Shown: positions 18,716 to 37,491, numbered from the stretch's first letter. The stretch: 64,000 nucleotides of DNA from Candidatus Parcubacteria bacterium (GCA_026004495.1 BPJG01000001.1:70470-134469); one strand, 5' to 3'. The notes: generated by a model from the letters alone, not told the origin. Translations and numbers: made by a program.

Positions 18716-19464
18716 TTCTTTATGATTATTAAAATATACCTTGATCTGAAAGTATTTTTTAGATCTTTAAAGTCAATACCTAAATTTTTATATTTTTCTT
18801 TAATTTTTCTAGTAAGTCTTCTAATAAAGAGATAATATTTCTTGATCCCGATTTTTTTTAAAATTTTTTTTATTTCTGATGGTAAATAAGCTGCTCGAGC
18901 TGAATAATAAATTAATTTTTTACTTAGATTATCAGGCGGTATAACCATTTTTAAAAGATAATAAGGTACATCTCTTCTTAAATCTTGAATATAAATTAAA
19001 CTATTTTGTTTTGTCACCCTTAGCATTTCTTTTATTGCTTTAGAAGTATTTTTAAATTGATGCAAACTATCTTTACACACAACAATGTCAAAATAATTAT
19101 TAGGAAAATTTAATTTATGAATATCATCTGAGATAAATTTTGTATTTTTGCAACCCTTACAGTTTTTCTTTGCCAATTGAAGTGCAAATTTAGTGTTGTC
19201 TATTCCGATAATTAAAGCATTTGGAAACCTTAAAGCAAGCTCTTTGCATAAAAACCCAGGACCACAACCTACATCAAGAATTTTAATTTTTTTATTGGTA
19301 TCTATTTTTGTTTTGGCAAATTCAATTAAATTATCAACAAGCGGAATTATCCACTTTTTATAATTTATTGTTGACATTTTCTCAAATTCTTTATGCTCAT
19401 TAATACCCATTTCTTTAGGTTCGGGAATCCTCTTTTTAAAAAATAGTTTTACTTTATTACCCAT
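18712..19464 (-). CDS. Class I SAM-dependent methyltransferase
   Basis: ILDVGCGPGFL (motif I) and FDIVVCKDSLHQF. Confidence 0.8.
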   Translation of the reverse strand: MGNKVKLFFKKRIPEPKEMGINEHKEFEKMSTINYKKWIIPLVDNLIEFAKTKIDTNKKIKILDVGCGPGFLCKELALRFPNALIIGIDNTKFALQLAKKNCKGCKNTKFISDDIHKLNFPNNYFDIVVCKDSLHQFKNTSKAIKEMLRVTKQNSLIYIQDLRRDVPYYLLKMVIPPDNLSKKLIYYSARAAYLPSEIKKILKKIGIKKYYLFIRRLTRKIKEKYKNLGIDFKDLKNTFRSRYILIIIKK

Positions 19465-20987
19465 TTTTGTTTAATACCTGCCTTAAAATAAATTGGATCT
19501 TCGTAGGGGTGAAGGAAAATTTCTGGTTCTAATTGTTTTTTATATTTTTCTGAAGCCGTTGAATAAAGATGATTATATTCTGTTGAATGTTTAATTAAGG
19601 AGTTTACTACTTCTTTTTTAATTCGTTCTTTTAATTTAAAAGCCGGTTTTATATTCTTTTTCATCTCTATATGAATATGCAATTTTTGATTGTAATTTTT
19701 ATCATAGACAACTTGCATTGTAAATTTACCTGTAATATATTTTTGTAGTTCTGATTTTAATAAAGCTTGTCTAATATATTCAGGATATAAAATAATTCCA
19801 AACAAGGATACAGTAAAGTCAGATCTTTCATAAACATATACGAATGGCAATTTAAGAATTTTATCTTTTATTTTCAACTTCTCAGATTCTTTAAAGATAT
19901 CGATGCCTACTTCTTTTAATCTTTTTATCATTTCATCAAAATAAATAACCCCTCCATAATCAGGGAAACTATATCTTAGAATAGGAATTGAATCTCCATG
20001 TCCCGAGGCCAAGATTAAGCCATCTTTTTCTTCAAACCAAACAATATAAGGATGGTATTGAGCTAAAGTAGGAGTTCTGGTAGCGTCTCTAAAGAGATTT
20101 CTAAAAACTTTATCTTTTTCAACAGCAATGTGCCTTATTAGGTTGGAAAAAGCTGTTTCATGTGCCATAGTTCCAAGTTCAACTGTACCATAAATATTGA
20201 TATTATCATTAAGCATATTTTCAAGATTGACCTTATTAGCGATATACTTTCTAAAGCTTTCAGGAAAGCTTTCAGCAGCATTTAAGATTCTTATTTTGAA
20301 TTTTTTAAATTGAACCCCGGCTGATACTGCTTCGTCGACTAAATCCTTGACAGAAGGAGGATAACCAACAAGAATTATTTGATCGTAATAAAATGATAGT
20401 TTTTGGAAAGTTTTTAATATTAATTCTTTATTTACTCCTATAGGAGCAACTGTTAATGGATATTTTTCGCTGAGTCTGTAGTAAACATAATAATTATGTA
20501 ACCCCCCAATCCATATACCTAATCCAAAGCTCAAAATAACTAAAGTATTAAATTTATTAATACCCCATTGATTTAAAAAGGCAGTTTCTAGTACATACAA
20601 TCCCTGTTCATCCAAATTTTCTCCTCTAATAAAATAAAAAGGCTCACCAGTAGAGCCCGAAGTTGCTGAAATTGTTGTTAGATTTAAATTTTCATTTGGA
20701 TAGAGTTGTTGATAAGGATATTGGCGAAGATAATTATTTTTATTCATAATTGGTAATTTAGCTAAGTCTCTAAAACCAGTAATTTCTCGATAATTAATTC
20801 CATTTTCTTTTAAGAATTGTTTATAAGCTGGTGTTGTTTCAATGGTAAATTTTACTAGTCTATCTATTTGTTTTTTGCCTAAATTCAACCAATAATCAGG
20901 TGGTCGTGTTTTTAATTCCTTCAATCTTTTATCTATGTTTTTGGGATATTTAAAATATATAAATTTTTTGTCCATTATGTTTCCCAT
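19449..20987 (-). CDS. Adenylate-forming enzyme, phenylacetate-CoA ligase / F390 synthetase (PaaK/CapK-like) family
   Basis: SATSGSTGEPFYF corresponds to the TSG(T/S)TG.P AMP-binding motif of the PaaK family. The size and C-terminal lid region are consistent with that family. Confidence 0.65.
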   Translation of the reverse strand: MGNIMDKKFIYFKYPKNIDKRLKELKTRPPDYWLNLGKKQIDRLVKFTIETTPAYKQFLKENGINYREITGFRDLAKLPIMNKNNYLRQYPYQQLYPNENLNLTTISATSGSTGEPFYFIRGENLDEQGLYVLETAFLNQWGINKFNTLVILSFGLGIWIGGLHNYYVYYRLSEKYPLTVAPIGVNKELILKTFQKLSFYYDQIILVGYPPSVKDLVDEAVSAGVQFKKFKIRILNAAESFPESFRKYIANKVNLENMLNDNINIYGTVELGTMAHETAFSNLIRHIAVEKDKVFRNLFRDATRTPTLAQYHPYIVWFEEKDGLILASGHGDSIPILRYSFPDYGGVIYFDEMIKRLKEVGIDIFKESEKLKIKDKILKLPFVYVYERSDFTVSLFGIILYPEYIRQALLKSELQKYITGKFTMQVVYDKNYNQKLHIHIEMKKNIKPAFKLKERIKKEVVNSLIKHSTEYNHLYSTASEKYKKQLEPEIFLHPYEDPIYFKAGIKQKWVIK

Positions 20988-22072
20988 TGTATAAAGGGTG
21001 GTTTTTTAACCGAGATGGCCGATGGTGGATCAGCTTTTCCTATTCTCATTACTGCGGTTAAAATATAATTATTTTTATCTACTTTAAATAATTCACATAA
21101 TTTTTGATAAGAATTATTAATAATGTTTAGCTCTTCTTCATTAAAAATATTTTTGTTTCCAAAATTAGCCTGTTGCCAAAAGAAAAATATTCCTGTAATT
21201 AGATGACAAGCTAAGTTTAACTTTGTAGCTCTAAGCCAAATATTTTCTATAAGCCTACCAAGATTTATAAATTCCTTATCATTATTAATAATAGAAAAAC
21301 CAATCATTGTGTTAGTAGCTGAATACATTTTAACTGTGTCTTTATAAATAGTTCTTACGATTCCTAATTTCTTCATTAATTTAAAGAAAGTAGTATTCCT
21401 TAAAAGTTTAATCATTAATATTTGAGGTGGTTTAAACTCCATTGTTTTGATATATAATCCCCTTTCTCCCTTTTGAGCTTTTTCTTTATCAAAAATGATC
21501 TCATTAAAAAGCAATTTTCTAAGATGGTCATTGTTAAAATTCAAATAAGTGTCATAAGCCAATAAACTGCCAATTTCATTTATTAAATCACCTTCAATTA
21601 TTGAAACCTTACAATTAGAGAAAAAATTAACTTCATTTAATAAATATTTTTTTTCTTCTTCTGTTAAGGCCTCTTTTTTGTAATGGTTTCTATTGGTTGT
21701 TCTTTTTTTAATATATTCATATAAGTCATCTTTCTCTTCAACGCCTGACTTTTCTAAAATAATTGAGGCTATGATATTATTTTCAAATTTCTCATTTATT
21801 GTTATTATGGGATTTAATTTATAATGCTTGGCTGTAATTACTATATTTTCAATTAAAGCCCCACAAGCAATTAAAGTACCTCTATTATTGTAATTTAATA
21901 TTGGATGATCTTTTTCTGGTAAATATCTTATTTTTATCGTATTTTGAGAAGCAATAAATTCCCATGGTTGAGAATTGCTTCCAGATGGAGCATTTAAGCT
22001 TTCTTTTAAAATATTTTCTATTAAAGATTTTTCAGGCATTTTTATTAATAATATTTTACAGCATATAATCAA
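20975..22072 (-). CDS. Double-domain nitroreductase-family protein
   Basis: NAPSGSNSQPWEF is the nitroreductase signature. A second lobe follows at about residues 200-365. The likely true start is MPEKSL at 22039. Confidence 0.7.
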   Translation of the reverse strand: MIICCKILLIKMPEKSLIENILKESLNAPSGSNSQPWEFIASQNTIKIRYLPEKDHPILNYNNRGTLIACGALIENIVITAKHYKLNPIITINEKFENNIIASIILEKSGVEEKDDLYEYIKKRTTNRNHYKKEALTEEEKKYLLNEVNFFSNCKVSIIEGDLINEIGSLLAYDTYLNFNNDHLRKLLFNEIIFDKEKAQKGERGLYIKTMEFKPPQILMIKLLRNTTFFKLMKKLGIVRTIYKDTVKMYSATNTMIGFSIINNDKEFINLGRLIENIWLRATKLNLACHLITGIFFFWQQANFGNKNIFNEEELNIINNSYQKLCELFKVDKNNYILTAVMRIGKADPPSAISVKKPPFIQWET

Positions 22073-22075
22073 TAT

Positions 22076-23188
22076 TTACAATTTTTTTAATTTTTTGAGG
22101 AAATATTTTTGTTGTTTTTTAAAATCTTTAGGTAAAATCGATAACATTTTATCAATATTTAATAAAATTCTTCCTTCTTTAATTTTTCCACCAAGAATAA
22201 TTTTTTTTGATAAATAAGAAACAGCTACACCGCATAAAGTTGCAGCATTACCTAATTGTGGCCAAGAATAAATTGTTTTTCCAACTTCTATTAATGAATA
22301 TAACATTCTTGGCGTTGCTAAATTAGCGCCTGCAATTTTGGCTGTAATCTTTATCATATCTTGAGGATTTAAATTTTTTAGATTTTCGGAAGATAAATTT
22401 CCCAAAAGACCATGAAGAATAGGATAATTAGGATTTAAATCGTATCTTTCGATGTCAATTAAAATATTATCGGCATGGTCTGTTGCCATAATTACAGGAA
22501 TTCTATATTTTTTAGCTTTCTCTCTTATTTTTATTTTGAGATAGAGATTATCCATTTCTTCAATTAAAACATCAATTTTAGGTTTAAGTAAAAAATTATC
22601 TATATTTTTATAAGTAATACCTTCTGAATAAATTTTCAAGCTTGCATAAGGATTTATTTCATAAATTTGTTGAGCACAATAAATTGCTTTATTAATTCCA
22701 ATCGACGAAATAGGATAACGTAATCTATTTAAATTAGATAAAGAAATTTCATCATTATCAGCTATTTTCATATATCTAGCTCCACCTATCATTGCGAGTG
22801 TTAAGGCTATATGAGAACCCACACTAAGACCTGCTATCCCTATTCTTGATTTATAAAACTTTATTTGTTCATCTTTGGTTAGAAGGTAAATATTTCTCGC
22901 AGTTTTAGTTTCAAAAAATTCTTTTTCATCTAAACAGTGAATTAATTTTTTATTCCAGGGGAAATATATCCATTTACCAACTTTATCTAATGTTTTATTT
23001 TTTAATTTTTTCTTTAAAAAATTTTCAAAATCTTGTTGATATTCTTTGATAAATTTATATTTAGGATTTTTAATTAAAAAATAATCTTCTAATTGTTTTT
23101 CGTAATTATCTATGATTTCTGATGGGTTTAATCTCTTTTTTAATAGCTCTAAACTTATATGATGAGCGTTAAAAATTAATGGCTTCAT
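22076..23188 (-). CDS. ThiF/E1-like adenylyltransferase with a roughly 110-aa N-terminal extension
   Basis: RIGIAGLSVGSHIALTLAMIGG...MKIADNDEISLSNLNRL (Rossmann motif plus the D.D....NL.R E1 motif). No CxxC zinc pairs were seen. Confidence 0.75.
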   Translation of the reverse strand: MKPLIFNAHHISLELLKKRLNPSEIIDNYEKQLEDYFLIKNPKYKFIKEYQQDFENFLKKKLKNKTLDKVGKWIYFPWNKKLIHCLDEKEFFETKTARNIYLLTKDEQIKFYKSRIGIAGLSVGSHIALTLAMIGGARYMKIADNDEISLSNLNRLRYPISSIGINKAIYCAQQIYEINPYASLKIYSEGITYKNIDNFLLKPKIDVLIEEMDNLYLKIKIREKAKKYRIPVIMATDHADNILIDIERYDLNPNYPILHGLLGNLSSENLKNLNPQDMIKITAKIAGANLATPRMLYSLIEVGKTIYSWPQLGNAATLCGVAVSYLSKKIILGGKIKEGRILLNIDKMLSILPKDFKKQQKYFLKKLKKL

Positions 23189-23427
23189 TGTCTAATTTGA
23201 ATATTATTTTAAATTATATCACAATCAATATAGTTTTTAAAAAATTATTTATTTTTTACTTATTTATTTCTCAATTTCTTAAGAAATTAAGAAAAACAAA
23301 ATTTTCTAATTTAATACATACGATGTCTTATTAATTTTTTTCATTATTCATCTCTATAGCAGAAAATAATGAAAATGCTTTGGAGTTTTGGAAAAATAAT
23401 AAAAACTTTGAATAAGGAGGTAAGACC

Positions 23428-23658
23428 ATGAGAGCCGTTCGAGTTGAAGAGCTAGAAATAATTTGTCACGAAGTAAGGCGCCGGATGTTCCAAACCATCC
23501 TCAATGCGGGAAGCGGTCATCTCTGTAGTTCGTCTTCCTCTGTGGAATGCATTTTTAGAAGTCTACAGAAATTTATAAATCTATATGTCTTCTGTTTAAT
23601 TTGTTTTGGTAATGTAAAATCCCATTCAGAATCTATACCCGGAGAACTGAAAGTATAA
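23428..23658 (+). pseudogene. Transketolase N-terminal fragment (only about 45 homologous residues)
   Basis: A strong SD (aaggagg, 23415-23421) precedes the ATG. MRAVRVEELEIICHEVRRRMFQTILNAGSGHLCSSSSSVECI resembles the transketolase ...R..I..M...AGSGH.GGSLS.VE.. motif. Homology is lost after about 23560. GC is much higher than in the flanks. Confidence 0.55.
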
Positions 23659-24723
23659 AGAAGTGATAGTCTGCTGTTTATAGAACTAGTAATTTCAAGA
23701 AGATGAGATAGAGTCATCCCATATCCGATAGAAGCAGAAACTGGTTTCTGGCTATTGTAATTGATCCCAAAAAGAAGTATTCTGCTGTCGATAAATTGTG
23801 TGGTAGTAAAATTGCTTCCGTGTATATTCTTTTGCCTACCCAGTTTTGTAGATGCCTCTCGACAAAAAATATATCAACGGCTAAAATTTATTGCTAAATT
23901 GAATAAAGCTCGTTGGCAATTGATGAAACCTTTTCATTTGGGTTTTTTATTTTGTGTAAAAACTCCTTGAAAACACCTCGCGCATTTGACTGATTGATTT
24001 CTAAATTTTTTAAGTAAGGGTATATTGCATTAAAAATACTAAGAAATTCTGAGTCAAACATTTGATCTATAACGCGGTCGCTCATGTTTGTACCAATTCA
24101 ATTATATCTCTCAAATGACCATTCGTCGTCTAGTTTTTCTAATGAGTCAGCAACCATGGCTTTTGCACCTGGAGGCGAAAATTTTTTTCATTTAGTTGCT
24201 TTACAGCTGGATCTTTGAATAACGGGTTAGGATAATTTAATGATTTTTCTCCGTTATGTTTAACGATAAATCTTTTCTCCTTGTAGATATCAAAGACCGA
24301 ACGAACGAATTCCTGATACAATTTGTTGTTTGTATTGAAGTAATTGTCGTAATCACAGCTTATCTGAATACTTTTCAAATCTTTCAGAATTACATCGCTA
24401 AAATAATTCAGAACGCTTATTGGTTCAGTAAATTTATACAAGTGACTTTTCGGGATCTTATAAAAATTGAAAATAAGATCTAATGTTCTTTGATCTGTAT
24501 CATTTAGTTTTCGTTTTTGTAGAAAATTTGATACTGCATTGGCAATTTTAAAAACGGTAGAACCGCTATAATGCATGCAAATTGGGAATCGAACAGAAAA
24601 TCCCTGTTTTCGTTTCCATCTAGCCCAAACGTCAGCCAATACAAAAATCCTTGCATGACTTAAACTCAGCGGGCACACCGGATGCATGTGAGCAATATCA
24701 ATAAAATATTTTTTATCTTCCAT
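23517..24723 (-). pseudogene. Class I aaRS-like (archaeal/eukaryal LeuRS-like N-terminus) gene, degenerate HIGH motif, broken downstream
   Basis: The 24139-24723 ORF reads FIDIAHMHPVCPLSLSHARIFVLADVWARWKRKQGFSVRFPICMHYSGSTV, matching P..sG.lH.GH.R.y...Dv.aR..R..G..V.FP...H.tG.p. Two in-frame TAG codons lie at 24139 and 24130. Frame changes follow, leaving pieces at 23894-24085 and 23517-23717. Confidence 0.5.
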
Positions 24724-24726
24724 AGC

Positions 24727-25341
24727 TTATATAAATAACGGTTTTATTTTTTCAAAAATTTTTCGGTGCCCAATTTCGTTAGGATGAATACCATCTTCGG
24801 AAAGCAACCCTAGATAATCAGACCTTAGCCATTCTTCAGCAATACTCAAAAAGGCGATATTCTTTTTTTTACACTCATCGCCAATGATCTTTTCATACGT
24901 TACGATTTTTTCATTCAAAAAATATACATTGTCCAATGGTGTTGTTTTTCGTTCGTCAACCGGGGTTAAACCAACGAAAATAATGTGATTGGTGTATTTA
25001 CTTGCGTTCTTAATGAGAAGTCTTATATTGTTTTTGAAGCCTTCTGCATTTGTAATAGGGTTGTCTATGGATTCGACGCATTTTGTATCGTTGATACCTA
25101 CTGCGAAAATGATAGAGGAATGATCGTCGGGATAAATTTTTCTACATCTTGCTTCAGCCTCAATTGGAAGTCGTTTAATAACTTCATTGGTTGATTCACC
25201 CGAGATGCTTAAATTATGGGTAAGAGTAAAATCTTTATCTTTTTTATCAAATTGTTGAATTAAAAGAGAGGGCCAAGATTTTATTTTTTCCACTTTTCTA
25301 CCCGCCGCTATGCTGTCTCCAAAAATTAGTATGTTGTACAT
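24727..25341 (-). CDS. SGNH/GDSL hydrolase
   Basis: ILIFGDSIAAG (block I), GINDT (block III), DGIHPNEIGH (block V). The gene is GC-richer than the genome background. Confidence 0.8.
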   Translation of the reverse strand: MYNILIFGDSIAAGRKVEKIKSWPSLLIQQFDKKDKDFTLTHNLSISGESTNEVIKRLPIEAEARCRKIYPDDHSSIIFAVGINDTKCVESIDNPITNAEGFKNNIRLLIKNASKYTNHIIFVGLTPVDERKTTPLDNVYFLNEKIVTYEKIIGDECKKKNIAFLSIAEEWLRSDYLGLLSEDGIHPNEIGHRKIFEKIKPLFI

Positions 25342-25412
25342 TAATTATTTTAAATTAAGTTTAATTTTTTATTTGTACGAATTATCTAATATAATAATGA
25401 CCTAATTATAAC

Positions 25413-26177
25413 TTAAAAATCAATAAATTTAAAAAGGAAAGGGAAAGATGGTGATCCAAGAAATATAGAAGTGCGTAAGTCCTCAAATCGCACCCCTTTT
25501 TCATTACTTTGAATGATTAACTTATATTTTTTGAGGTTCCAATAAGTCTTTATAAAGTTTCTTATTGCTTCTCGTCTGATTTGTTCTATAATCTTTTCAT
25601 AATAATTATCTAGAAATAATTTCTTAAAATAAAATAAAGCGTAAAGATTATCAAGAAAATAATCTCGAGGATCATCCATAACCAAATTGTTTCTATTAAT
25701 CAAATATTTTTTAATTAACTTAATTTCTTCAACTTCAGGTAGAATTTTTATTTCATTAAAAATAATATTTAAAATCTCCCTAATATTTTTTAGATCACTG
25801 CTAAATTCTATATAAACATAACCAAAATTATTGCCAGCTAGATAAGATCCAGAATAAACATCATAAATCAGACCATTTTCTTGTCTTAAAATTTTAAATA
25901 ATCTACTATTTTGCGGACCAGCTAATGTATTTAAAATAACCCCTTGTAAAATTGAATTCTCAACCCCAGTTTTTCTACTAATAGAAGGAATAATTAGACT
26001 AACACTTATGGTTTTTAGGTTGTGGTTGTGATTAAAAGCAAAATTTTTATTAAACCAATCTTTAGAATTAATGTGGATATCAATAGCTTTGGGATTTTTC
26101 TCAATATTATCAAATTGTTTATTCAATATATTTTTTAATTTATTAATCTTAAAGCCCCCTGTTATTGCTAAAATCAA
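25413..26177 (-). pseudogene. M16 (insulinase/pitrilysin) peptidase C-terminal half only
   Basis: ILAITGGF...LGVILNTLAGPQNSRLFKILRQENGLIYDVYS matches the M16 inactive-domain pattern. The ORF starts at a TTG, with an in-frame TAG 6 codons upstream (26196-26198). No catalytic HxxEH half is present. Confidence 0.6.
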
Positions 26178-26486
26178 TTGACTTCTCGAAATAATCTAAT
26201 ACAGTTACTACTGTCCCTTCTTTCGCCATCAAGGAAGATTCGTAACCTCCGCCACAACCGCATTCTATGCATTTTAAATTTATAAAATTTCCTATTATCG
26301 ATTTATAGTGATTATTTAATGCTTCGTTACAATAAAAATCCCATTTATCATTAATTTCAAATATATCGCCATGTTTTTTATAATAATTTAATCATTTTTT
26401 CCCAGTGATTATCCCAAAAGCGTCTTTCATCTAAAGCAAAGTCTTTTCGATGAAAAAATAATAAATCTATTATTTTTGTTAGCCAT
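26155..26486 (-). pseudogene. Class I SAM methyltransferase, multiply frameshifted and truncated
   Basis: Three frames give MANKNNRFIIF, then FHRKDFALDERRFWDNHWEK, then KKHGDIFEINDKWDFYCNEALNNHYKSIIGNFINLKCIECGCGGGYESSLMAKEGTVVTVLDYFEKS. The breaks lie at T and A homopolymers (about 26450 and about 26395). The gene ends within the M16 fragment. Confidence 0.6.
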
Positions 26487-26493
26487 CTGTTAA

Positions 26494-26867
26494 TCATTTT
26501 TTTATTAATCTTTTTATTATTTTTAGGGGCCTAAAATTTCTACTTATTTCTTCAAAATTTTTTTTACATATATCTCTATTATCTTTTGGGTAGTTACAAA
26601 GATAAATATCTAAAGTAAGGTAATTCAATTCAGGCCAAGTATGAATAGTAATGTGAGATTCAACCAAGCTAATCGGATCAGTGAAACCACCAGCAGAAAA
26701 TTTATAATAAAAGGATCCTAATTCGTGTATATTATATTTTTTAACAATGTTGTGAATGTATTTTTTCGTTTGATTTAAAGATTTCAGTTCTTCAACTTCT
26801 TTTGTGGTAATTTCTCCTAATATATGAAGTCTGGTAAATGGTCCGTTCTTGTTTTATTCATACACAT
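26494..26867 (-). pseudogene. S-adenosylmethionine decarboxylase (SpeH-type) paralog, start region out of frame
   Basis: The translation LGEITTKEVEELKSLNQ...FSAGGFTDPISLVESHITIHTWPELNYLTLDIYLCN contains the ESH..IHTWPE pyruvoyl-enzyme motif. This frame has no ATG, GTG or TTG. The upstream ATGs at 26861 and 26867 are in another frame. A TA-dinucleotide slip at about 26821-26826 would join them. Confidence 0.6.
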
Positions 26868-26885
26868 CCTTTTATTGAATGATAA

Positions 26886-27920
26886 CTAATGTGTTCCTTT
26901 TTCTACAATTTCAAAAAGGTTTTTTGAGCAATCAATTACGGCCTTAACACCTAATGGTATTGTAAGTATAGGATCAGTATGGCCTATATCAACATTAGCA
27001 AGAATTGGAAATTTATAACCAGTAGTTCTTATTTTAACTAATCTTATGGCTTCTTTTTTTTCTTTATCAGAATAACCAAAAAACCTTCCAATTATCATTC
27101 CTTTGACTTTTTTAAAAATACCAGATAACTCAAGATCAGTTAAATAAGAATCTATATTTTCTATTCTTTCTCCTCTTGTAAAGTCATTATCACTCTCTGG
27201 TATCTCCCAAAAAAGAATTTTGTTAGTAAAATCAGGCCAATATTTTGTCCCTCTTAAATGCATCATTGAAGTAATACAGCCACCCAAAATTGGTCCTTCT
27301 ACTTTACCTTGTTTTAACCATTGCCAACCTTTGTTCTTTTTCATTTTTCTTGGTCTTCTTAGATCTTCTTTTTTAAACCAATCAAGAATTTCATAGGTCC
27401 AACAAGAAGAAGGCTTAATCACACCGATAGGTTTGTCTTCCATTAATGCTTTTTTAAAATATTCTTCAGTATAAGGGAGTATTCTTGGGTTTTCTGCAAA
27501 TTGAGTAAGAGCTGCTGGCCCATAAAATGTTATTAAATTTGCCTGGGTATAAAACGCAAAATGTAAAACTGTAGCGTCGGAATAACCAACAAAAATTTTT
27601 GGGTTTTTCTTTATGAGATTAAAATCTAAATATTTTAAAACTTGATTAGAGTGATTTCCTCCTATAAAACAAATTATTGCTTTAACTTCTTTATCTTTAA
27701 AAAATAAATTAATATCTTCTGCTCTTTCCTTAGGCGAACCGGCAGTATAACCAGTAATATTTAAAGCATTTTTACCAATTTTAACTTTAAATCCCATATT
27801 GTTTAACATTTTAATAGCTCTTTTTGTTCTGTGTGGTACTAAACCAGCAAGTGGGGCTGATGGACTTATTAATCCGATTGTATCTCCTAATTTAAGTTTT
27901 GGTGGTTTAATTAATTTCAT
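26886..27920 (-). CDS. S66 serine peptidase (LD-carboxypeptidase LdcA / microcin C7 immunity MccF family)
   Basis: LKLGDTIGLISPSAP, VGYSDATVLH (nucleophile Ser), DIGHTDPILTIPLG (catalytic His). Confidence 0.85.
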   Translation of the reverse strand: MKLIKPPKLKLGDTIGLISPSAPLAGLVPHRTKRAIKMLNNMGFKVKIGKNALNITGYTAGSPKERAEDINLFFKDKEVKAIICFIGGNHSNQVLKYLDFNLIKKNPKIFVGYSDATVLHFAFYTQANLITFYGPAALTQFAENPRILPYTEEYFKKALMEDKPIGVIKPSSCWTYEILDWFKKEDLRRPRKMKKNKGWQWLKQGKVEGPILGGCITSMMHLRGTKYWPDFTNKILFWEIPESDNDFTRGERIENIDSYLTDLELSGIFKKVKGMIIGRFFGYSDKEKKEAIRLVKIRTTGYKFPILANVDIGHTDPILTIPLGVKAVIDCSKNLFEIVEKGTH

Positions 27921-27933
27921 ACCTATTTTAAAG

Positions 27934-28227
27934 CTATTGGAAAATTATGGATGAATTTGACCCTCTACACATAGGAATGGTTTTGTTTCCCAGATAAAAG
28001 GTAATTTTAAAATTACCTGGATAAATCTTTCTATCCCCATTCCCCAACCGCAGTGAATTTTTTGTTTTTTTACTACTCTTGAATCGATATATGGTTGATA
28101 ATCTGTATAACATAGCCCCTTTATATATAACAAAATCTTTGTCTTTAATAATATCTAAAATTACTCCTCTTAATTCATTGTAGGCTATATCAGTGCAGTC
28201 AGTTATAAAAACAATTCGCTTTTTCAT
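27934..28227 (-). pseudogene. Mosaic remnant: short N-terminal piece plus class II aaRS (Asp/Asn/Lys-type) motif-3 C-terminal fragment in another frame
   Basis: Frame A reads MKKRIVFITDCTDIAYNELRGVILDIIKD.... Frame B (27945-28133) reads ...YTDYQPYIDSRVVKKQKIHCGWGMGIERFIQVILKLPFIWETKPF, resembling the class IIb ending ...H.G.G.G.eR......g...Ir....FP. Confidence 0.45.
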
Positions 28228-28229
28228 AA

Positions 28230-29027
28230 TTAAATTAAATTTAAATTAATTATTCGTTTTTTATCAAAAAGTTTTTTAAAATCGTGTCCAATCTTGTCCA
28301 TCAAAAAAACTTTTGCTTTAGAACATTTTGTTCTTTGAAAAAAAATAGAACTGGTGTAGTTAATTGTTTCATCTGATTTACCGTGAAATATAATGATGTT
28401 AGGGTAATTTTTATCCATTTTGATAAAAGAGTCAGCCTCCTTGCCGGAAAAATATTTATCCCAACATTTATTTTCTATTCCCCTGAAAGCAAATTTATAA
28501 CCTCTTCTAAGAAATTCGAGGAAAGATATATTGAATTCATAAAATGCTTCTATATTTTTTGGGTTTTCTAGATATGCTAAAACCTCTTTTTTATGTAAAA
28601 ATAGTAAAGGAGCAAATAATAAAACATTCTTTACATCATTTTTGGATACTTTTGCAGAGATAACCGGATTACCAGCAAAACTGTAACCAATTAAATGTAG
28701 ATTTTTGTAATTCCAATATATCTCTTTATTGTCAAAAGTTTTTATCCCTTTTTTCTTTTTTACGAACTCAACTGCTAATTCTACAGTTTTTTTGCAGTTC
28801 TTATAGGTAAAACTGCCTCCACTTAACCAGCTTCCCAGATAATAAACGCTGAAGAAAGCAGTTTTTTTATCTACCTTATCAATAAAAAAATCTTTATCGA
28901 TTATTTGCGGTAACCCAGGGAAATAAATAAAAATATTTTCGACATTTACCTTGCCATTGTTAAAACTATCTTTTGTATAGTAGAAATGCAGTGCTACATT
29001 TTTATAGATAAAAAGTTCTAATTCCAT
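28230..29027 (-). CDS. Alpha/beta hydrolase
   Basis: HLIGYSFAG is a GxSxG-like nucleophile elbow. IIIFHGKSDE and GHDF are consistent with the acid and His positions. Confidence 0.6.
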   Translation of the reverse strand: MELELFIYKNVALHFYYTKDSFNNGKVNVENIFIYFPGLPQIIDKDFFIDKVDKKTAFFSVYYLGSWLSGGSFTYKNCKKTVELAVEFVKKKKGIKTFDNKEIYWNYKNLHLIGYSFAGNPVISAKVSKNDVKNVLLFAPLLFLHKKEVLAYLENPKNIEAFYEFNISFLEFLRRGYKFAFRGIENKCWDKYFSGKEADSFIKMDKNYPNIIIFHGKSDETINYTSSIFFQRTKCSKAKVFLMDKIGHDFKKLFDKKRIINLNLI

Positions 29028-30041
29028 ATTTTTTTAAGCTAATAAATATTTTTCCCTTTACCGCATCGATAATAATTTTTTTATTTCTATAGTTATCAAT
29101 TTTTCCTTTGATTATTTTTGATTCTACAAGACAAAAAATATTAAACTCTCTCGCTATGACTGCTATGTGTAAAAGAATGCCTCCAGTTATTATTAATCCA
29201 TTAATAAATGGAATTTTTTTAATCAACGAAATGTCCAGATTGCGTTTTACTAAAACAATATCATTTTATATTTATTTTATCATAATCTTCAATGTTTTTA
29301 ATTATTTTTAAAAATCAACTTGCGATACCCTTGTAAGCAATATTTCCTGTTCCTATGATTTTACTTTTGTCAAAAGTATAATTTATAATTTGGGGATATT
29401 TGTTCAGAGTTGTAATATTTCTACTTTGGAAAATATAAATTTCCTTACCGTCCCATCCCCATTCAATATCTAAGTATTCCCAAATATACCTTCAAGATTT
29501 AATGCTATCTTTGACAATTTTTTCAAAAATTTAGATTTCAGGTTATTTATTTTGGCTTTTTCAATTACCTTGATAATTGGTTTTTTATGACAACTAACAA
29601 CAGAATCTCCCAAGTCTTGGGTATATTCTACAATCATCTTATTGATATTTTGATTAAATGGATCGGCAGTAAATATCACTCCCGCAACACCTACGGGAAT
29701 CAATTCTTGAATGGCAATAGCCATACTTTCAAATTCCAGTCTGATATCATTTATTCGCGCGTATATTTTAGCATTATCACTAAATAAAGATCGATAACAT
29801 AATATAATTGCCTTTATAATATTTTCTTCCCCTTTTATATTTAAGAAGCTTGAATATTGACCAGCAAAGCTGAAAAAAGGGGGGATCCTCTACCCACACT
29901 TTTCTTTGATTATTTTTATTTTTTTGGATTTAGTTCCTACTTCTAAATTATCATAATCTTCTATAAGTTTTATATTATGGTAAATGAAATGTTTATCACA
30001 CATTAGCTTTAAAACCTCTTCTTTTAAAAAGTTCCTTTCAT
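29002..30041 (-). pseudogene. PEP synthase / PEP-utilising (rifampin-phosphotransferase-like) gene, multiply frameshifted
   Basis: The pieces, in order, are ...YDNLEVGTKSKKIKIIKEKCG*, MAIAIQELIPVGVAGVIFTADPFN...DLGDSVVS (ATP-grasp part, 29470-29724), DIEWGWDGKEIYIFQSRNIT, and GLIITGGILLHIAVIAREFNIFCLV (swivel phosphohistidine domain, 29002-29226). They lie in different frames. Confidence 0.65.
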
Positions 30042-30073
30042 CTTGGATTAATCAAATATTATTTTATAGGTCC

Positions 30074-30163
30074 TTATTTTTCCCAACGATAAATAGTAAT
30101 ATATCTAACATTAAGTAATTTCGCTATTTCAATTGTGGTCAAATAAACGTTCTTATTTTTCAT
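30074..30163 (-). pseudogene. Excisionase/AlpA-type helix-turn-helix stub (29 aa)
   Basis: MKNKNVYLTTIEIAKLLNVRYITIYRWEK* resembles the excisionase-family HTH (..lT..E.A..Lgvs..TiYrw...). It ends prematurely. Confidence 0.4.
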
Positions 30164-30372
30164 ACAATTCATATCATTAAATGACTTTGTTATACTTATA
30201 ATATAATTGCTGAACACTTTGCTAATGGTTTAGTATAATAATAGTAAAGGTCGAACACATCACAAACTATCTACTAAAACAGTTATCATAACTAATTATA
30301 ATAAAAAAGCTTTTATTCAAGAACAAGGGTCAAATGTTCTTGACATGGGCGGATTAAAAATAAAAATCAAAA

Positions 30373-30417
30373 ATTAGAAGAAATAGAGAGATTAGAAGAA
30401 ATAGAGAGATTAGAAAT
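30373..30417. repeat. 18-bp tandem repeat, 2.5 copies
   Basis: attagaagaaatagagag occurs twice, followed by attagaaat. Confidence 0.85.
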
Positions 30418-30558
30418 CAAATATCTTTACATCAGACCTTGACGACCTCATAACGAGTTTAATAAAAGGGCTATCTAAATATGGAAAAAGATATTTTAGA
30501 TATGTTTTATTAGTTTTAGATGATAAATAGTTTTATATAATAAAATATTTATATACAA

Positions 30559-31020
30559 ATGAATGATTACTATAAAATATATAATTATTTTTTGACCGCC
30601 ATTAAAAAAGATAATCCTTATGGTACTCCCCCAAAAATTAGTGGAGGAAATACAAAAAATATTAAAAATGCTTTATTAAAATTTTTAATTACCCTCGAAA
30701 AAATAACAACTTCGTCAAAATTAAAATATCAAGATATTTCTATATTTGTTTTAACTGACCCCAAATTTTTCTTTCCTCATAAAAAATCGAACATTACATT
30801 AGATGATTATGGAGCGCATTTAAAAGTAAGTACCAAGGGTTTGTTGTATCAAATCTTTCAAGCTTTGGATTTATCTAGACATTTTAATTTAGTCATAAAA
30901 TTATATAATCTACTTTCAGATTTACATTTATACTTATCAATGAATGATATCCCCTCAGTAGAAATATATAAAAATAAAACTTTGAAATTATTGAAAAAGT
31001 TAAAAGAATTGGTAATTTGA
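30559..31020 (+). CDS. Hypothetical protein
   Basis: 153-aa ORF. No motif recognised. Confidence 0.45.
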   Translation: MNDYYKIYNYFLTAIKKDNPYGTPPKISGGNTKNIKNALLKFLITLEKITTSSKLKYQDISIFVLTDPKFFFPHKKSNITLDDYGAHLKVSTKGLLYQIFQALDLSRHFNLVIKLYNLLSDLHLYLSMNDIPSVEIYKNKTLKLLKKLKELVI

Positions 31021-31308
31021 GAGTTGTTCTAATGAATTTTCAAGAAATTTTACAAAATTTAAACTTGACGGAGGAGTATTTTGATATTCAAAGAAGGATA
31101 AAAAAATTTAAGAGTTGATCAAATTTGTTCTTTAAGTGAATTGGTTGGGGGTCAAATTTAAAAGGTTAAATTTAAAAGAGAAGATTTAGAAAAGATAGCA
31201 AAATTAATTAAAGAAACAGACTCTGTTAATTTAGATACTATAATAACAGAAGCAAATTCAATTAAAGATCTTATTTTTTGGTTAGAAATTTTTGAAAAAT
31301 ATAAATAA

Positions 31309-31878
31309 ATGTATATTTCTCAGGGTAGATTTTGTTATATTGAAGAACTAACAACAGCCAATGATAAAGAATTATTTGAATTAATGAAAGAAAATGAAGA
31401 AGAGTATAGAAATTTAATTAGTGATCAACCCCTACCTCAAACTTATGAAGAATTTCGGGAAACATTGAAAACTTGGTTTACTCATGGAAGAAATTTTCAG
31501 TTTTTAGTCAGAAAAAGAGAAGGAGACAAAGTTATAGGTACTTTTTTCTTTTATTTTTGGGATCAAGAAAATAAAACAACTAAAATATCAGCCTATTTTA
31601 TTCCTGAAGTAAGAAAGACACCATTAATTGAAGAAGCATTAGGATTAGCTTTGATGTTTGCTTATAAAATAATGCATGTAGAAAAAGTAGAATTTTATGT
31701 TTATAGAGAAAACACTGAAATGCTTAACTTAGTTAAAAAATATAAGATTAATAAAGTATGTGAATCTCAAAGCGAAGTTAATCCTGAAAGAACATTAATA
31801 AACTTAGAAATCTCAAAAGAACAATTACAAGAAATATATAAAAAATTAAGAAGATTTTATGAGAGAAAGATAAGGTAA
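31309..31878 (+). CDS. GNAT N-acetyltransferase (RimJ/RimL-like, Acetyltransf_3)
   Basis: The layout ...FLVRKREGDKVIGTFFFYFWDQENKTTKISAYFIPEVRKTPLIEEALGLALMFAYKIMHVEKVEFYVYRENTEMLNLVKKY fits the RimL-type GNAT core. Confidence 0.6.
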   Translation: MYISQGRFCYIEELTTANDKELFELMKENEEEYRNLISDQPLPQTYEEFRETLKTWFTHGRNFQFLVRKREGDKVIGTFFFYFWDQENKTTKISAYFIPEVRKTPLIEEALGLALMFAYKIMHVEKVEFYVYRENTEMLNLVKKYKINKVCESQSEVNPERTLINLEISKEQLQEIYKKLRRFYERKIR

Positions 31879-32172
31879 AAACCTGAATTTTTCTTAAATT
31901 TTTAACCTCCATCCAACCCCTGATAAATTGATTCTTGACCCGAATCCCATTAGAAGAAGCAAAAAAATTTATTCCATTTTGAAATTAAATTTAAAATAAA
32001 AGGTTATAAATAAAGAAAATTCTTGAATTAAAAAGTTTGATTTTAAGTAAAAAATTAAAAAAAAGAAGTATATAATATATAAAAAATTTTTCAGTTGATT
32101 AAAAAAGATTAAGAAAAGAAATTATTTGAATCAGTTATTTATGGAAAAAAGAAACATTCTCAATAAATATCA

Positions 32173-32308
32173 AAAAAGATATATTTTCTCAAGATAACTT
32201 AAGTAAAAATTTCTATTTAACTGGTGGAACAGCCTTATCAAATTTATTAGTAACTTTTTATTTAAATAATAAAATTGATGAAAATTTAGATTTTTATATC
32301 AGAAATTG
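32173..32308 (+). pseudogene. Possible AbiEii/nucleotidyltransferase-toxin fragment
   Basis: KNFYLTGGTALSNLLVTFYLNNKIDENLDFY resembles the f.LkGGTAL...y...R.S.DlDF N-terminal motif. Only about 45 codons are open. Confidence 0.3.
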
Positions 32309-32362
32309 ATTTTACGTGATAAAATAATTACATATATTTTTTTTAATAAATTATAATTTTTT

Positions 32363-33409: not shown

Positions 33410-33428
33410 AAAAAGAATAAATTTACTC

Positions 33429-33456
33429 TTGACAAATTTTTTTATTGAGGTATAAT
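33429..33456 (+). promoter_or_regulatory. Consensus sigma70-type promoter of cassette 1
   Basis: TTGACA (33429-33434), a 16-nt spacer, then TATAAT (33451-33456). Confidence 0.6.
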
Positions 33457-33462
33457 TATTAT

Positions 33463-33526
33463 CGGCTCTAACCCCTATGTCCTCGTCTCTGATATGGAAT
33501 GGAAGCTCCTGCTTCCATTTTTTTTT
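33463..33526 (+). ncRNA. Candidate small RNA 1: 38-nt unique segment plus intrinsic terminator
   Basis: The unique core is cggctctaacccctatgtcctcgtctctgatatggaat. It is followed by the hairpin atggaagc-tcct-gcttccat and T9 (33518-33526). The start is estimated from the -10 box. Confidence 0.5.
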
Positions 33527-33576
33527 ATTCGTGTATTAAATTTAGATTTTCATGATATAATAATTAAAAAAATATC

Positions 33577-33604
33577 TTGACAAATTTTTTTATTGAGGTA
33601 TAAT
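33577..33604 (+). promoter_or_regulatory. Consensus sigma70-type promoter of cassette 2
   Basis: TTGACA (33577-33582), a 16-nt spacer, then TATAAT (33599-33604). The 35-nt block is identical to cassette 1. Confidence 0.6.
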
Positions 33605-33610
33605 TATTAT

Positions 33611-33672
33611 TAGTCTTGCCATAACCGTATCCGAATCACCTAAATTTGGAAGCTCCTGCTTCCATTTTTTTT
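33611..33672 (+). ncRNA. Candidate small RNA 2: 37-nt unique segment plus the same intrinsic terminator
   Basis: The unique core is tagtcttgccataaccgtatccgaatcacctaaattt. It is followed by the hairpin tggaagc-tcct-gcttcca and T8. Confidence 0.5.
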
Positions 33673-33767
33673 ATTCGTGTATTAAATTTAGATTTACATG
33701 ATATAATAATTAAAAAATAAAACTTTTTATGTTTTTAAATAAATTTTATAATATAAAAAAATAGAAA

Positions 33768-36289: not shown

Positions 36290-36843
36290 TACTGATTTAT
36301 CTCTTCATTAATTTCAATAATTTTAAATTTTAATTTATCAGGATCAATATTTAGAACTTCAATAGATTTAGGCAGATTAATTAGATTATTTCTATTAATA
36401 GAAATATTATAATTACTAGGCTCTAAATCAGATAAATCAATTACTGCTTTAATATTTTCAGTTTTAAAATTTTTAAAATCAAGTTCATTGCCAGAAATTA
36501 AAACTTTTATTTTTGAAATATTTAAATTAGACACACTTAAATTATCTTTAAGGTTAATAAATTCAATTGGAACTTCAACGATTTTTTGAATCTTTGTTTT
36601 GTTATAATTATTAACTATCCAAATTGAAAAAGAAATAAATAAAGCTAAAAAGCCAAAACCAATATTTTTTATTATTTTGCTATAATCAGACTTAAAAAGA
36701 TCATTAAAGGAATTTTGAAAATAATAATTTTTTAATTCTTTTATAATCTTGTCTTCGCTAATATTAAAAAATAATTTAGTATCTTTAACAAAAGAAATTT
36801 TTCCAGTTTCTTCAGAGATAATAATAATTAAAGCATCAGATGA
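36289..36843 (-). CDS. Same-frame continuation: CdaA C-terminus (SDALIIIISEETGKISF) fused to a TM segment and a YbbR/CdaR-like domain
   Basis: All 185 codons after the TAA are open in the cdaA frame. They read SSDALIIIISEETGKISFVKD...IGFGFLALFISFSIWIV (TM)...VEVPIEFINLKDNLSVSNLNISKIKVLISG...(YbbR-like). The first canonical start codon is the GTG at 36534. Confidence 0.7.
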   Translation of the reverse strand, partial: SSDALIIIISEETGKISFVKDTKLFFNISEDKIIKELKNYYFQNSFNDLFKSDYSKIIKNIGFGFLALFISFSIWIVNNYNKTKIQKIVEVPIEFINLKDNLSVSNLNISKIKVLISGNELDFKNFKTENIKAVIDLSDLEPSNYNISINRNNLINLPKSIEVLNIDPDKLKFKIIEINEEINQ

Positions 36844-37491
36844 TTAAGATAAACCTATGGCTGATCTATGACGAGTGCCTAATCTTTGATTATAATCATA
36901 AAAATCAGGCAACGGTAAATGAGCTGAAGCATATTTAATTTTATCATTTTTAATAATAATTGCGCCATCATGGAGCGGTGAGTTTTTATTGAAAATAGTT
37001 ATTATTAGTTCTGTGCTTATTTCACTGTTAAGTAGCTTTGCACCTTGGATAATAGAATCTAGAGTGATATTTTTTTCAAAAACTAAGATGGCTCCTATTT
37101 TATTTTGAGACAAATATTTTATAGCATTTAAGATGTTATCAATTAAAACATCTTTATTATTGAGATTTTTCTTTCTTTTTGGTACAATAATAGCAATCTG
37201 TTCTAAAAAAATCCTAAGCTCTCTCTGAAAAATTACGATTAAACTTAAAATTACAAAAGGTAGATAAAATTGAAGCAAATTTTTAGTTAGAGTAAGGTTT
37301 ACCCAATTAGCTACAAGAAATAAAAATACAAGAATTGAAAAACCAAAAATGATTTTATAAGAACGTGTTTTATTAATTATAGATATAGTAAAAAATACAA
37401 GAATACTTAATAAGAAAATATCTATAACATCTTTAATATAGATATTTTTAATTAAATAAATTAATTTTTGATAATCAATAAAATTATTCAT
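36844..37491 (-). CDS. cdaA: Diadenylate cyclase CdaA, terminated early by an in-frame TAA
   Basis: Three N-terminal TM helices. DAC-domain motifs GAILVFE, PLHDGAIII and RLGTRHRSAIGLS are followed by TAA (36844-36846), where homologs have the Glu of G(I/L)SE. Confidence 0.85.
   Translation of the reverse strand: MNNFIDYQKLIYLIKNIYIKDVIDIFLLSILVFFTISIINKTRSYKIIFGFSILVFLFLVANWVNLTLTKNLLQFYLPFVILSLIVIFQRELRIFLEQIAIIVPKRKKNLNNKDVLIDNILNAIKYLSQNKIGAILVFEKNITLDSIIQGAKLLNSEISTELIITIFNKNSPLHDGAIIIKNDKIKYASAHLPLPDFYDYNQRLGTRHRSAIGLS

Follow-up and report, generated by a model that had tools for sequence, protein, structure and literature searches.

A cluster of young pseudogenes in a Patescibacteria genome as a probable zone of gene-module gain and loss

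A 64,000-nucleotide stretch of DNA from a Candidatus Parcubacteria bacterium (GCA_026004495.1, BPJG01000001.1:70470-134469), here called the window, contains at 23.2-32.3 kb a real, locally extreme cluster of young pseudogenes. We think it probable that this region is a plasticity zone between an Rv1355c-type ThiF/nitroreductase cluster and a native GNAT acetyltransferase gene, in which at least three modules that circulate among Patescibacteria have accreted and are now being deleted. Module A comprises an SGNH/GDSL hydrolase gene, a leucyl-tRNA synthetase (LeuRS)-like paralog and a transketolase stub; module B, an S66 LD-carboxypeptidase gene and a paralog of speH; and module C, a PpsA-like pseudogene, a gene of 265 amino acids (aa) and a stub of an S-adenosylmethionine (SAM) hydrolase gene. 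The evidence lies in the make-up of these modules, their intact architecture elsewhere, the map of lesions, the low ratio of non-synonymous to synonymous substitution (dN/dS, or omega) in the broken genes, and in relatives whose syntenic site lacks the modules.

The source, metagenome-assembled genome mg094 (Patescibacteria; locus tags KatS3mg094_), comes from Katase hot spring sediment and was assembled with metaFlye 2.8.3 from PacBio HiFi reads only, without short-read polishing (PMC9671151); proteins of the region are deposited as KatS3mg094_089 and KatS3mg094_091. By open reading frame (ORF) analysis the window reads well in the standard code, and its gene set (enolase, CysRS, IMPDH, ArgRS, MurF, FemAB, KsgA, LepA, ThrRS and SecF) is that of a cell of the Patescibacteria, or candidate phyla radiation (CPR). 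Lesions were mapped by aligning intact homologues to the window DNA with tblastn and by six-frame and targeted Pfam scans. The homologous loci or contigs compared are numbered L004-L031, with about 20 related loci for the modules, and P-numbers denote homologous proteins.

Coverage by ORFs of 100 aa or more drops to 70% in 23.0-32.5 kb, from 97% and 95% in the two flanks, and about 20 gene-disrupting lesions fall within the 9.1 kb of 23.2-32.3 kb, compared with 2 found in the other 55 kb. Among them are eight in-frame stops created by base substitution (four TAA, two TAG and two TGA) and five deletion junctions, one a 192-nucleotide (nt) internal deletion and four joining stub to stub with the removal of kilobases. 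A first-pass annotation, made from the sequence alone, had described a collapse of gene integrity across this region, with intact genes interspersed. The erosion of genes is real: Pfam scans confirmed nearly every fragment that it listed, as well as the intact SGNH, S66 and GNAT genes. An alternative genetic code was considered and rejected, because reading TGA or TAG as sense gives no region-specific rescue and all three stop types are present.

It is most improbable, in our judgement, that the genes are intact in the organism and appear broken through HiFi homopolymer errors or a chimeric join at low coverage. This explanation draws on the HiFi reads, the metaFlye assembly and the lack of short-read polishing (PMC9671151), on flank Logan contigs that are just 1.2-2.4 kb long and share no k-1 overlap, which suggests low coverage, on the location of several frameshifts in A7, T5A4 or C6T6 runs, and on the splitting of Sua5, outside the region, at an A8 run. 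Against it stand the eight in-frame substitution stops of all three types, the 192-nt internal deletion and the four kilobase-removing stub junctions, a 2-nt insertion in the speH paralog and a frameshift at 29470-29473 that lies outside any homopolymer. The flanks are equally rich in homopolymers, yet retain 95-97% long-ORF cover, and in other lineages the same genes have lesions of their own, unlike those here. Moreover, a Logan k-mer contig (run DRR290133) is 100% identical to the window over 23322-31389 (8,068 bp) and spans every module junction; because it derives from the same reads, it excludes assembler error but not read error. Misassembly, which the first-pass annotation had offered together with low coverage as an alternative, is thus unlikely, and the homopolymer frameshifts (A7, T5 and C6T6 runs) could be consensus errors; no such doubt attaches to the stops made by substitution, to the indels of 2 and 192 nt or to the kilobase-scale junctions. 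Strain variation was rejected as the reason why Logan contigs end, because contigs without k-1 overlap point to coverage gaps. The frameshift in Sua5, one of the two lesions seen outside the region, lies at an A8 run (~7212-7219) in the Sua5/TsaC-like part of an MGMT-Sua5 fusion gene (6553-7369, plus strand); either a normally essential gene is truly damaged here, or the homopolymer was misread in the HiFi data.

The composition of the region is uneven. Window GC is 0.242, and the mean outside the region is 0.236. The segment 23501-25500 reaches 0.33, the highest 2-kb value in the window (z = 3.5 versus outside; 1.4 times background), with a 400-nt peak of 0.37; 25.5-30 kb lies at 0.27-0.29, which is no excess given that 1-5 kb lies at 0.29-0.30, and 30-32.3 kb is at background. 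A jump in GC from 23.4 kb had been noticed by eye and put at about twice the background over 23.4-25.4 kb; the rise stands, and the twofold factor holds at third codon positions only. Measured against 49 flanking ORFs as the host reference (GC at third codon positions, GC3, 0.150±0.029), the LeuRS-like ORF (0.320) and the SGNH gene (0.309) are outliers at z = 5.6-5.9 and the 265-aa ORF (0.245) at z = 3.3; values for a 153-aa ORF, an M16_C peptidase fragment, the S66 gene and the GNAT gene are 0.196, 0.185, 0.163 and 0.153. By GC3, therefore, two patches are foreign, at 23.4-25.4 kb and 28.1-30.2 kb, and the remainder is not. Donor-like loci have a GC of 32-39%. The suggestion that the whole region is foreign has to be given up, because 25.4-27.9 kb and 30.2-32.3 kb are host-like and the GNAT gene has an orthologue by the same flank in L031. 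Of the sliding-window profiles that had been proposed as a check, GC singles out 23501-25500, but the dinucleotide signature, which peaks at 22-27 kb, is similar at 1-4 kb and 54-57 kb.

L028 holds a complete module A, in the order SGNH (204 aa), LeuRS-like gene (475 aa), methyltransferase (264 aa) and a convergent transketolase (648 aa). The SGNH/GDSL hydrolase gene of the window (24727-25341, minus strand; Lipase_GDSL_2, E = 1e-18) is also intact at 204 aa and shares 70-72% aa identity with the copies in L004, L005, L026, L027 and L028, with an omega of 0.07-0.11; it stands immediately upstream of the LeuRS-like gene in all six loci whose upstream side was recovered (those five and the window). 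The LeuRS-like pseudogene, a paralog of ~470 aa (23517-24723, minus strand; NCBIfam archaeal LeuRS positions 31-176 of 946, E = 1.6e-26), is colinear with L005 at 77% nt identity down to ~23540. Its N-terminal ORF (24139-24723, 194 aa) is open; the gene carries a frameshift in an A7T4 run at ~24181-24187, a second at ~23750-23770 and stops at 24098-24100 (TGA), 23894-23896 (TAG) and 23888-23890 (TAA), and its final 60-90 codons are lost. Two in-frame TAGs and frame changes had been reported for this gene: the frame changes are there, as two frameshifts, but only a single stop is TAG. Its truncated 3' end meets a transketolase 5' stub of ~40 codons (23428-23547, plus strand; DXP_synthase_N positions 11-49, E = 0.029), which, as annotated, has a perfect ribosome-binding site (AGGAGG, 23415-23420, 7 nt upstream of the ATG). 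Given that the stub matches the N-terminus of the 648-aa L028 transketolase (66% aa and 71% nt identity), stub and LeuRS-like remnant represent two ends of one block, from which a deletion of ~2.9 kb took 60-90 codons at the 3' end of the LeuRS-like gene, the methyltransferase gene and ~610 transketolase codons.

The LeuRS-like gene has been interrupted or truncated independently in five of the six loci examined. To the frameshifts, three stops and 3' truncation of the window copy correspond a gene cut at 192 aa in L004, one in four pieces in L005, one of 308 aa followed by a GIY-YIG gene (1809-2180) in L026, and one with a single frameshift in L027, where a resolvase-type serine recombinase gene (3056-3298) starts 6 nt after it. 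A restriction-modification pair lies near module A in L004, where the module is itself near a SIMPL gene. Beside the broken module A of L005, the segment 1-3600 holds a 209-aa archaeal-type AdoMet synthase, a 71-aa RNase HII and a 356-aa GluRS-like gene, apparent fragments; clustered decay adjoining module A may thus recur in other lineages.

Close relatives of the 194-aa ORF were only eight short or broken proteins, which share PLSLSHAR at the HIGH position, and a HMMER search recovered an intact LeuRS-like family of 455-499 aa, with 18 cluster representatives below 1e-30. True LeuRS enzymes, of 850-1000 aa, resemble it at only 25-32% identity over the first ~150 residues. The family aligns with both halves of the Rossmann-fold catalytic core of Pyrococcus horikoshii LeuRS (1wz2, 1wkb); unlike archaeal/eukaryal-type LeuRS, it lacks the CP1 editing and C-terminal tRNA-binding domains and is paired with an SGNH gene. 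About 270 CP1 columns and about 150 C-terminal columns of the alignment, present in the true LeuRS P0130, are absent in 12 of 12 family members. The HIGH position reads (L/I)S(L/I)(S/D/N)H, with the second histidine kept (PLSLSHAR in the window copy), and at the KMSKS position most members retain an MSAS(K/R)G loop, which is degenerate in the clade closest to the window (TDSASRG, IDSASRG or NVSPSRR; L027 and P0106 have TDSASRG/IDSASRG). The leucyl-tRNA synthetase signature of HIGH, KMSKS, CP1 editing and C-terminal tRNA-binding domains is accordingly absent from the window copy and from its nearest clade. Strong purifying selection (omega ~0.1) together with repeated interruption would be in keeping with a function that is transferable, useful under some conditions and soon lost in a new host. 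We raise, as a tentative idea that we would not wager on, that the GC-rich core is a broken copy of an undescribed Patescibacteria mobile module built around a ~470-aa LeuRS-derived protein, preceded by SGNH and, in L028, followed by a methyltransferase. Were this true, the LeuRS-derived function might be, for example, to activate amino acids for a product outside translation or to confer immunity to a compound that targets LeuRS.

Module C keeps one order, PpsA-like gene, 263-aa gene and SAM_HAT, in L022, L024, L025 and the window, and its nt identity to L022 and L024 is 83-84%, from 30199 to 28135. The PpsA-like pseudogene (29002-30178, minus strand; HTH_17-PPDK_N-PEP-utilizers, ~441-449 aa) has 96 homologues, most of which combine PF12728, PF01326 and PF00391, and those with a source name are Patescibacteria or Nealsonbacteria. 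Aligning intact homologues with tblastn bears out the first-pass description of at least four frame pieces: there are stops at 30074-30076 (TAA), 30059-30061 (TAA), 30038-30040 (TGA) and 29890-29892 (TAG), frameshifts at ~30026-30030, ~29470-29473 and ~29262-29318, and an internal deletion at ~29881 of 192 nt (64 codons of the ATP-grasp domain). The window copy retains the phosphohistidine residue in GGILLHIAVIARE. Like PpsA, PPDK and rifampicin phosphotransferase, the family has an ATP-grasp PPDK_N domain followed by a swivel phosphohistidine domain. Unlike these enzymes, it is only ~445 aa long, lacks a PEP/pyruvate-binding TIM barrel and a rifampicin-binding domain (PEP-utilizers_C was found neither in the window copy nor in the 96 homologues, which of these enzyme domains have PF01326 and PF00391 only), has an N-terminal HTH_17/MerR domain and shares an operon with genes for a putative hydrolase of 263 aa and a SAM hydrolase.

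The 265-aa gene (28230-29027, minus strand) is intact and probably encodes an alpha/beta hydrolase. It shares 83-84% aa identity with the 263-aa gene in L022 and L024 and 71% with that in L025, with an omega of 0.11-0.14 at a synonymous divergence (dS) of 0.61-0.76. An intact alpha/beta hydrolase had been listed here; the frame is indeed open, and the family label comes from the motifs GYSFAG, HGKSD and GHD, which are invariant in four homologues. The protein has no Pfam, NCBIfam or PDB match (the best Pfam hit is BD-FAE at E = 0.017), and a single-sequence AlphaFold model, at a predicted local distance difference test score (pLDDT) of 40.7, was too poor for a fold search. Beyond this gene lies a fragment that the first-pass list lacked, a 5' stub of ~30 codons of a SAM hydrolase gene (SAM_HAT/DUF62; 28135-28227, minus strand), recognized by homology to L022, L024 and L025 that enters their SAM_HAT genes and stops at 28135-28144, ~90 nt in (96% identity over 26 aa to L022). 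It adjoins the 3' stub of a class IIb aminoacyl-tRNA synthetase (aaRS) gene of the Asp/Asn/Lys type (27948-28133, minus strand; tRNA-synt_2 positions 278-304 of 308, E = 0.0022), the motif-3 stub of the earlier list, which comprises the final 35-60 codons with motif 3 as GWGMGIERF and the natural stop. The fusion of the two stubs is a deletion junction, hidden in a chimeric 97-aa ORF (27934-28227).

The same locus bears on the proposal that all of 23.2-32.3 kb is the decayed cargo of one old integrative element with its own excisionase, which we regard as very unlikely. GC is raised over 23.4-30 kb, an HTH_17 motif occurs at 30074-30163, and recombinases accompany individual modules elsewhere: the resolvase-type gene by module A in L027 and a large serine recombinase near module C in L025. 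The helix-turn-helix (HTH) that had been annotated as a 29-aa excisionase-type stub is present, but belongs to the PpsA-like gene: HTH_17 (30026-30178) lines up with residues 4-54 of HTH_17+PPDK_N+PEP-utilizers proteins of 441-449 aa in colinear fashion, the 29-aa stub covering roughly residues 4-30, and it is the N-terminal domain in dozens of intact PPDK_N-family homologues. Six-frame Pfam scans detected no recombinase in the window, there is no tRNA within 18 kb of the region and no convincing flanking repeat or att site, and scans with Rfam and for promoters, terminators and tandem repeats revealed nothing that marks the region borders. Modules A, B and C, which make up a mosaic core at 23.4-30.2 kb, were never found together in about 20 related loci; their GC3 values diverge (0.31, 0.16 and 0.245), as do the distances to their nearest copies, the GNAT gene is native and low dN/dS speaks against old decay. 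The pieces thus have separate histories, and a single integrative element no longer accounts for them. The large serine recombinase of L025 (17028-18188) lies 4 kb from the PpsA-like operon; together with the recombinase and GIY-YIG genes beside modules in L026 and L027, it hints at how modules travel, but is not evidence for the window locus. A phage origin was rejected: IMG/VR contained no relatives of the 265-aa ORF, the LeuRS-like ORF or S66, and GenBank phages had no match for the intact P0106. A defence system was likewise rejected, as PADLOC returned no match for nine region proteins and hit P0016 only through its HTH (mad1, E = 2.5e-6).

Module B is best seen in the S66 LD-carboxypeptidase gene (26886-27920, minus strand; Peptidase_S66, E = 1.4e-40, and S66C, E = 1.4e-28), which is intact at 344 aa. 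Its aa identity is 76-81% in L006, L007, L008 and L010 and 64% in L009, with a dS of 1.07-1.22; each of these loci has a different context, and nothing else within ±10 kb resembles the window. In L006 and L007 the S66 gene is again followed by a speH remnant, shorter than that of the window. The window's speH paralog (pyruvoyl AdoMet decarboxylase; 26494-26861, minus strand; AdoMet_dc positions 1-95 of 107, E = 5.8e-19) contains VESHITIHTWPE, with the self-cleavage ES motif, in a complete AdoMet_dc domain. Its start had been called out of frame, and alignment with the L006 and L007 remnants reveals why: codon 3 is followed by two surplus nt that shift the frame relative to the ATG, and there is no in-frame ATG, GTG or TTG for 65 codons. 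An intact speH lies elsewhere in the window (56385-56753). The S66 genes of L007 and L010 (76-78% identical) are on contigs binned as Pacearchaeota and Aenigmatarchaeota (DPANN archaea), which reflects either mis-binning or CPR-DPANN exchange.

The flank as found in relatives places the modules as lineage-specific additions and the GNAT gene as native. To the left of the region (18712-23188, minus strand) lie a split Rv1355c-family gene (a ThiF-like part at 22076-23188 and a tandem-nitroreductase part at 20975-22072), a PaaK-like ligase gene and a methyltransferase gene. Five related metagenome contigs (25-28% GC, ThiF 67-71% identical) have conserved this cluster, with PaaK placed differently; they carry ThiF, nitroreductase, PaaK, methyltransferase and kinase genes. 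In L030 and L031 (ThiF 70% aa identical), PaaK and SHMT lie upstream of the ThiF cluster, with the GNAT gene present in L031, and modules A-C are absent within 3-10 kb. The GNAT gene (Acetyltransf_3; 31309-31878, plus strand; PF13302, E = 1.4e-9), intact at 189 aa, has a 64% identical orthologue in L031, 3.2 kb from the ThiF cluster, and because of this orthologue in a relative it is native rather than acquired. A search for an empty site in relatives had been proposed, and it gave a partial answer: L030 and L031 lack the modules, but synteny with them is rearranged, so that there is no exact empty site. A microcin-C-like cluster (ThiF, S66/MccF, GNAT/MccE, methyltransferase and SpeH) was considered and rejected, because ThiF and nitroreductase form a split Rv1355c-family gene and the others are separate modules.

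These comparisons also weigh on the idea that the region was inherited vertically and is decaying in place by reductive loss, without transfer, which we find unlikely. In its favour is L004, a relative (SIMPL 69% and Sua5 72% nt identical) whose SGNH and LeuRS-like genes are at a comparable 74% nt; moreover, the S66, M16_C and GNAT genes have host-like GC3, and Patescibacteria genomes are generally reductive. However, modules A and C lie 3-6 standard deviations above host genes in GC3, L030 and L031 lack the modules at the site, and each module has a different neighbourhood in every locus. Module C is also nearer to genomes of 33-36% GC than host genes are to their syntenic orthologues, with a dS of 0.61-0.76 to L022 and L024 versus 1.1-1.5 for ThiF, PaaK and GNAT. 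Horizontal acquisition, as the first-pass annotation had it, is therefore supported for part of the region, by GC3 for modules A and C, which are outliers at synonymous sites, by dS for module C, by the 76-81% identity of S66 copies in unrelated contexts and by relatives that lack A-C.

The decay, by contrast, does not look old. The LeuRS-like N-terminal ORF has a dN/dS of 0.10, as do the next 137, stop-bearing codons, and the PpsA-like pseudogene has 0.14 against L024, compared with 0.12-0.13 for intact pairs. Because dN/dS is the same in the broken genes as in intact copies, selection acted over almost the whole of their divergence (dS 0.6-1.3), and the inactivation was recent; other lineages bear different lesions in the same genes, and the GC3 of modules A and C is not shifted toward the host value. 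The description of an 'old' element is thereby contradicted. Low dN/dS could also be read as a sign that the interrupted genes still function, through recoding, programmed frameshifting or split subunits. The recurrence of the 194-aa LeuRS-like ORF at ~192 aa in P0002 and P0005 and the presence of ATG codons after some stops (for example 23894-24085) would agree with this, but we give it hardly any credence: TAA, TAG and TGA all serve as in-frame stops and the standard code fits the rest of the window, lesion positions differ between lineages, and what is deleted includes 64 ATP-grasp codons, the C-terminal quarter of the LeuRS-like protein and nearly all of the SAM_HAT, transketolase and aaRS genes. 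Inactivation that is recent relative to a dS of 0.6-1.3 would leave dN/dS just as low.

Several observations weigh against a plasticity zone of recently acquired modules. Module A has a dS of 1.5-2.9 to every other copy, so a close donor is unsampled, and L004, a relative by SIMPL and Sua5, carries module A, which may therefore predate the host species; module A may be the oldest of the three, or have been acquired twice. The S66, M16_C and 153-aa ORFs are host-like in composition, so that any case for their foreign origin would have to come from patchy distribution. Neither a mobility gene nor a tRNA or att-like repeat occurs in the region or next to it to point to an entry route. HiFi/metaFlye data and short Logan contigs suggest low coverage, and the A8 split in the housekeeping gene Sua5 means that some frameshifts of the region may be errors. 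The host side of the comparison is the 64-kb window.

We nevertheless favour the plasticity zone. Under this model, modules A, B and C would have arrived separately between the ThiF cluster and the GNAT gene, in an order and by a route (transformation or small serine-recombinase elements) that we can only infer. Most of the arrived genes would not have been maintained, and would recently have been knocked out by stop-creating substitutions, small indels and deletions, lesions that probably abolish function. Deletions would have fused the 3' end of the LeuRS-like gene to the 5' end of the transketolase gene, the 5' end of the SAM-hydrolase gene to the 3' end of the class II aaRS gene, and a methyltransferase remnant to the C-terminal half of an M16 peptidase gene. 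The SGNH, S66, 265-aa and GNAT genes are still open and look selected.

Pseudogene-rich degraded regions are familiar from the host-restricted reductive evolution of Mycobacterium leprae and Sodalis. The region likewise mixes nonsense mutations, small indels, stub-fusing deletions and AT-biased changes with interspersed intact genes; in contrast to those genomes, its decay is limited to ~9 kb of a tightly coded genome and to mostly recently acquired genes. Genomic islands and transfer between Patescibacteria are reported to be common in a survey of 125 aquifer genomes, which makes no mention of pseudogenes (PMC12455944). As in those islands, we see a compositionally deviant accessory block in a streamlined genome, with genes mostly common to other Patescibacteria, beside variable genes (the L004 restriction-modification pair); the region differs in that it lacks mobility genes and att sites, consists of three or more separately distributed modules and has a cargo that is mostly freshly pseudogenized. 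Islands and exchange in the phylum are thus already documented (PMC12455944), and the interest lies in the legibility of a gain-then-loss cycle and in two modules. Ten seemingly unrelated fragments in the annotation become three known operon architectures and a few deletion junctions, and the supposed excisionase no longer counts in favour of an integrative element. The region offers a clear snapshot of gene gain followed by rapid loss in a ~0.6-Mb symbiont-type genome, in which acquired modules keep donor codon composition and donor-level protein conservation though full of stops and deletions, and hence a rare direct view of how streamlined Patescibacteria remain small despite frequent gene exchange. 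It also defines two uncharacterized modules that are widely shared in Patescibacteria: SGNH with the LeuRS-like gene and methyltransferase, and the HTH-PPDK_N-swivel-His gene with the 263-aa gene and SAM hydrolase.

The remaining fragments lie between and beyond the modules. Between modules A and B, the C-terminal, inactive-domain half of an M16 peptidase gene (25413-26177, minus strand; 254 open codons; Peptidase_M16_C positions 20-162 of 181, E = 2.7e-18) was recovered as annotated; the N-terminal catalytic domain with HxxEH is absent, the upstream frame is closed by stops, and 5.8 billion proteins contained no homologue but itself. An M16-like gene and small ORFs by the GNAT gene in L031 have no detectable kinship to the M16_C, 153-aa or 91-codon ORFs of the window. 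Where the M16_C frame starts ends an N-terminal remnant of a class I SAM methyltransferase (26190-26500, minus strand; Methyltransf_31/11, E = 0.004-0.01; motif I CIECGCGGG); at least two homopolymer frameshifts had been ascribed to it, and it is indeed lesioned, but by one in-frame stop and probably one frameshift. Continuation of this methyltransferase into the M16_C region in another frame was judged to be AT-rich noise because of the strong Pfam match of the M16_C frame.

At the right end, an open 153-aa ORF (30559-31020, plus strand) has no Pfam, NCBIfam or PADLOC match. Directly upstream of the GNAT gene, the fragmented small ORFs noted at 31021-31308 resolve, from frame translations, into one broken gene of ~91 codons (31033-31305, plus strand), in which an A7 run at ~31100-31106 is frameshifted and a TAA interrupts the frame; it has no family match in Pfam. 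Beyond the GNAT gene, a candidate N-terminal stub of an AbiEii-type nucleotidyltransferase gene (32130-32306, plus strand; LTGGTAL), proposed earlier at ~32173-32308, matches PF08843 at positions 6-25 of 238, a weak resemblance of only 20 residues at E = 0.2.

Further observations concern the window outside the region. The second lesion found there besides Sua5 is a TAA at 36844-36846 within the frame of a cdaA-like diadenylate cyclase/YbbR gene (36292-37491, minus strand), at a position expected to be Glu (GLS*SSDAL); the frame is conserved on both sides. At 33427-33720 stand two tandem cassettes of ~147 nt, each with a perfect TTGACA-17-TATAAT promoter; their bodies of ~36 nt are wholly different, whereas the hairpin with T8 terminator (TGGAAGCTCCTGCTTCCATTTTTTTT) and the spacer are identical. 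The pair, which has no Rfam match above noise, looks like two small RNA genes with a common promoter and terminator. The genes for enolase (198-1502, plus strand) and an NDH-2-type dehydrogenase (2073-3941, plus strand) contain low-complexity inserts (TQNYA.., TQTNADN.. and SQQESA..), and the NDH-2 gene also encloses a GxxExxY/PD-(D/E)XK-like segment, which suggests that small elements have inserted in frame into these housekeeping genes.

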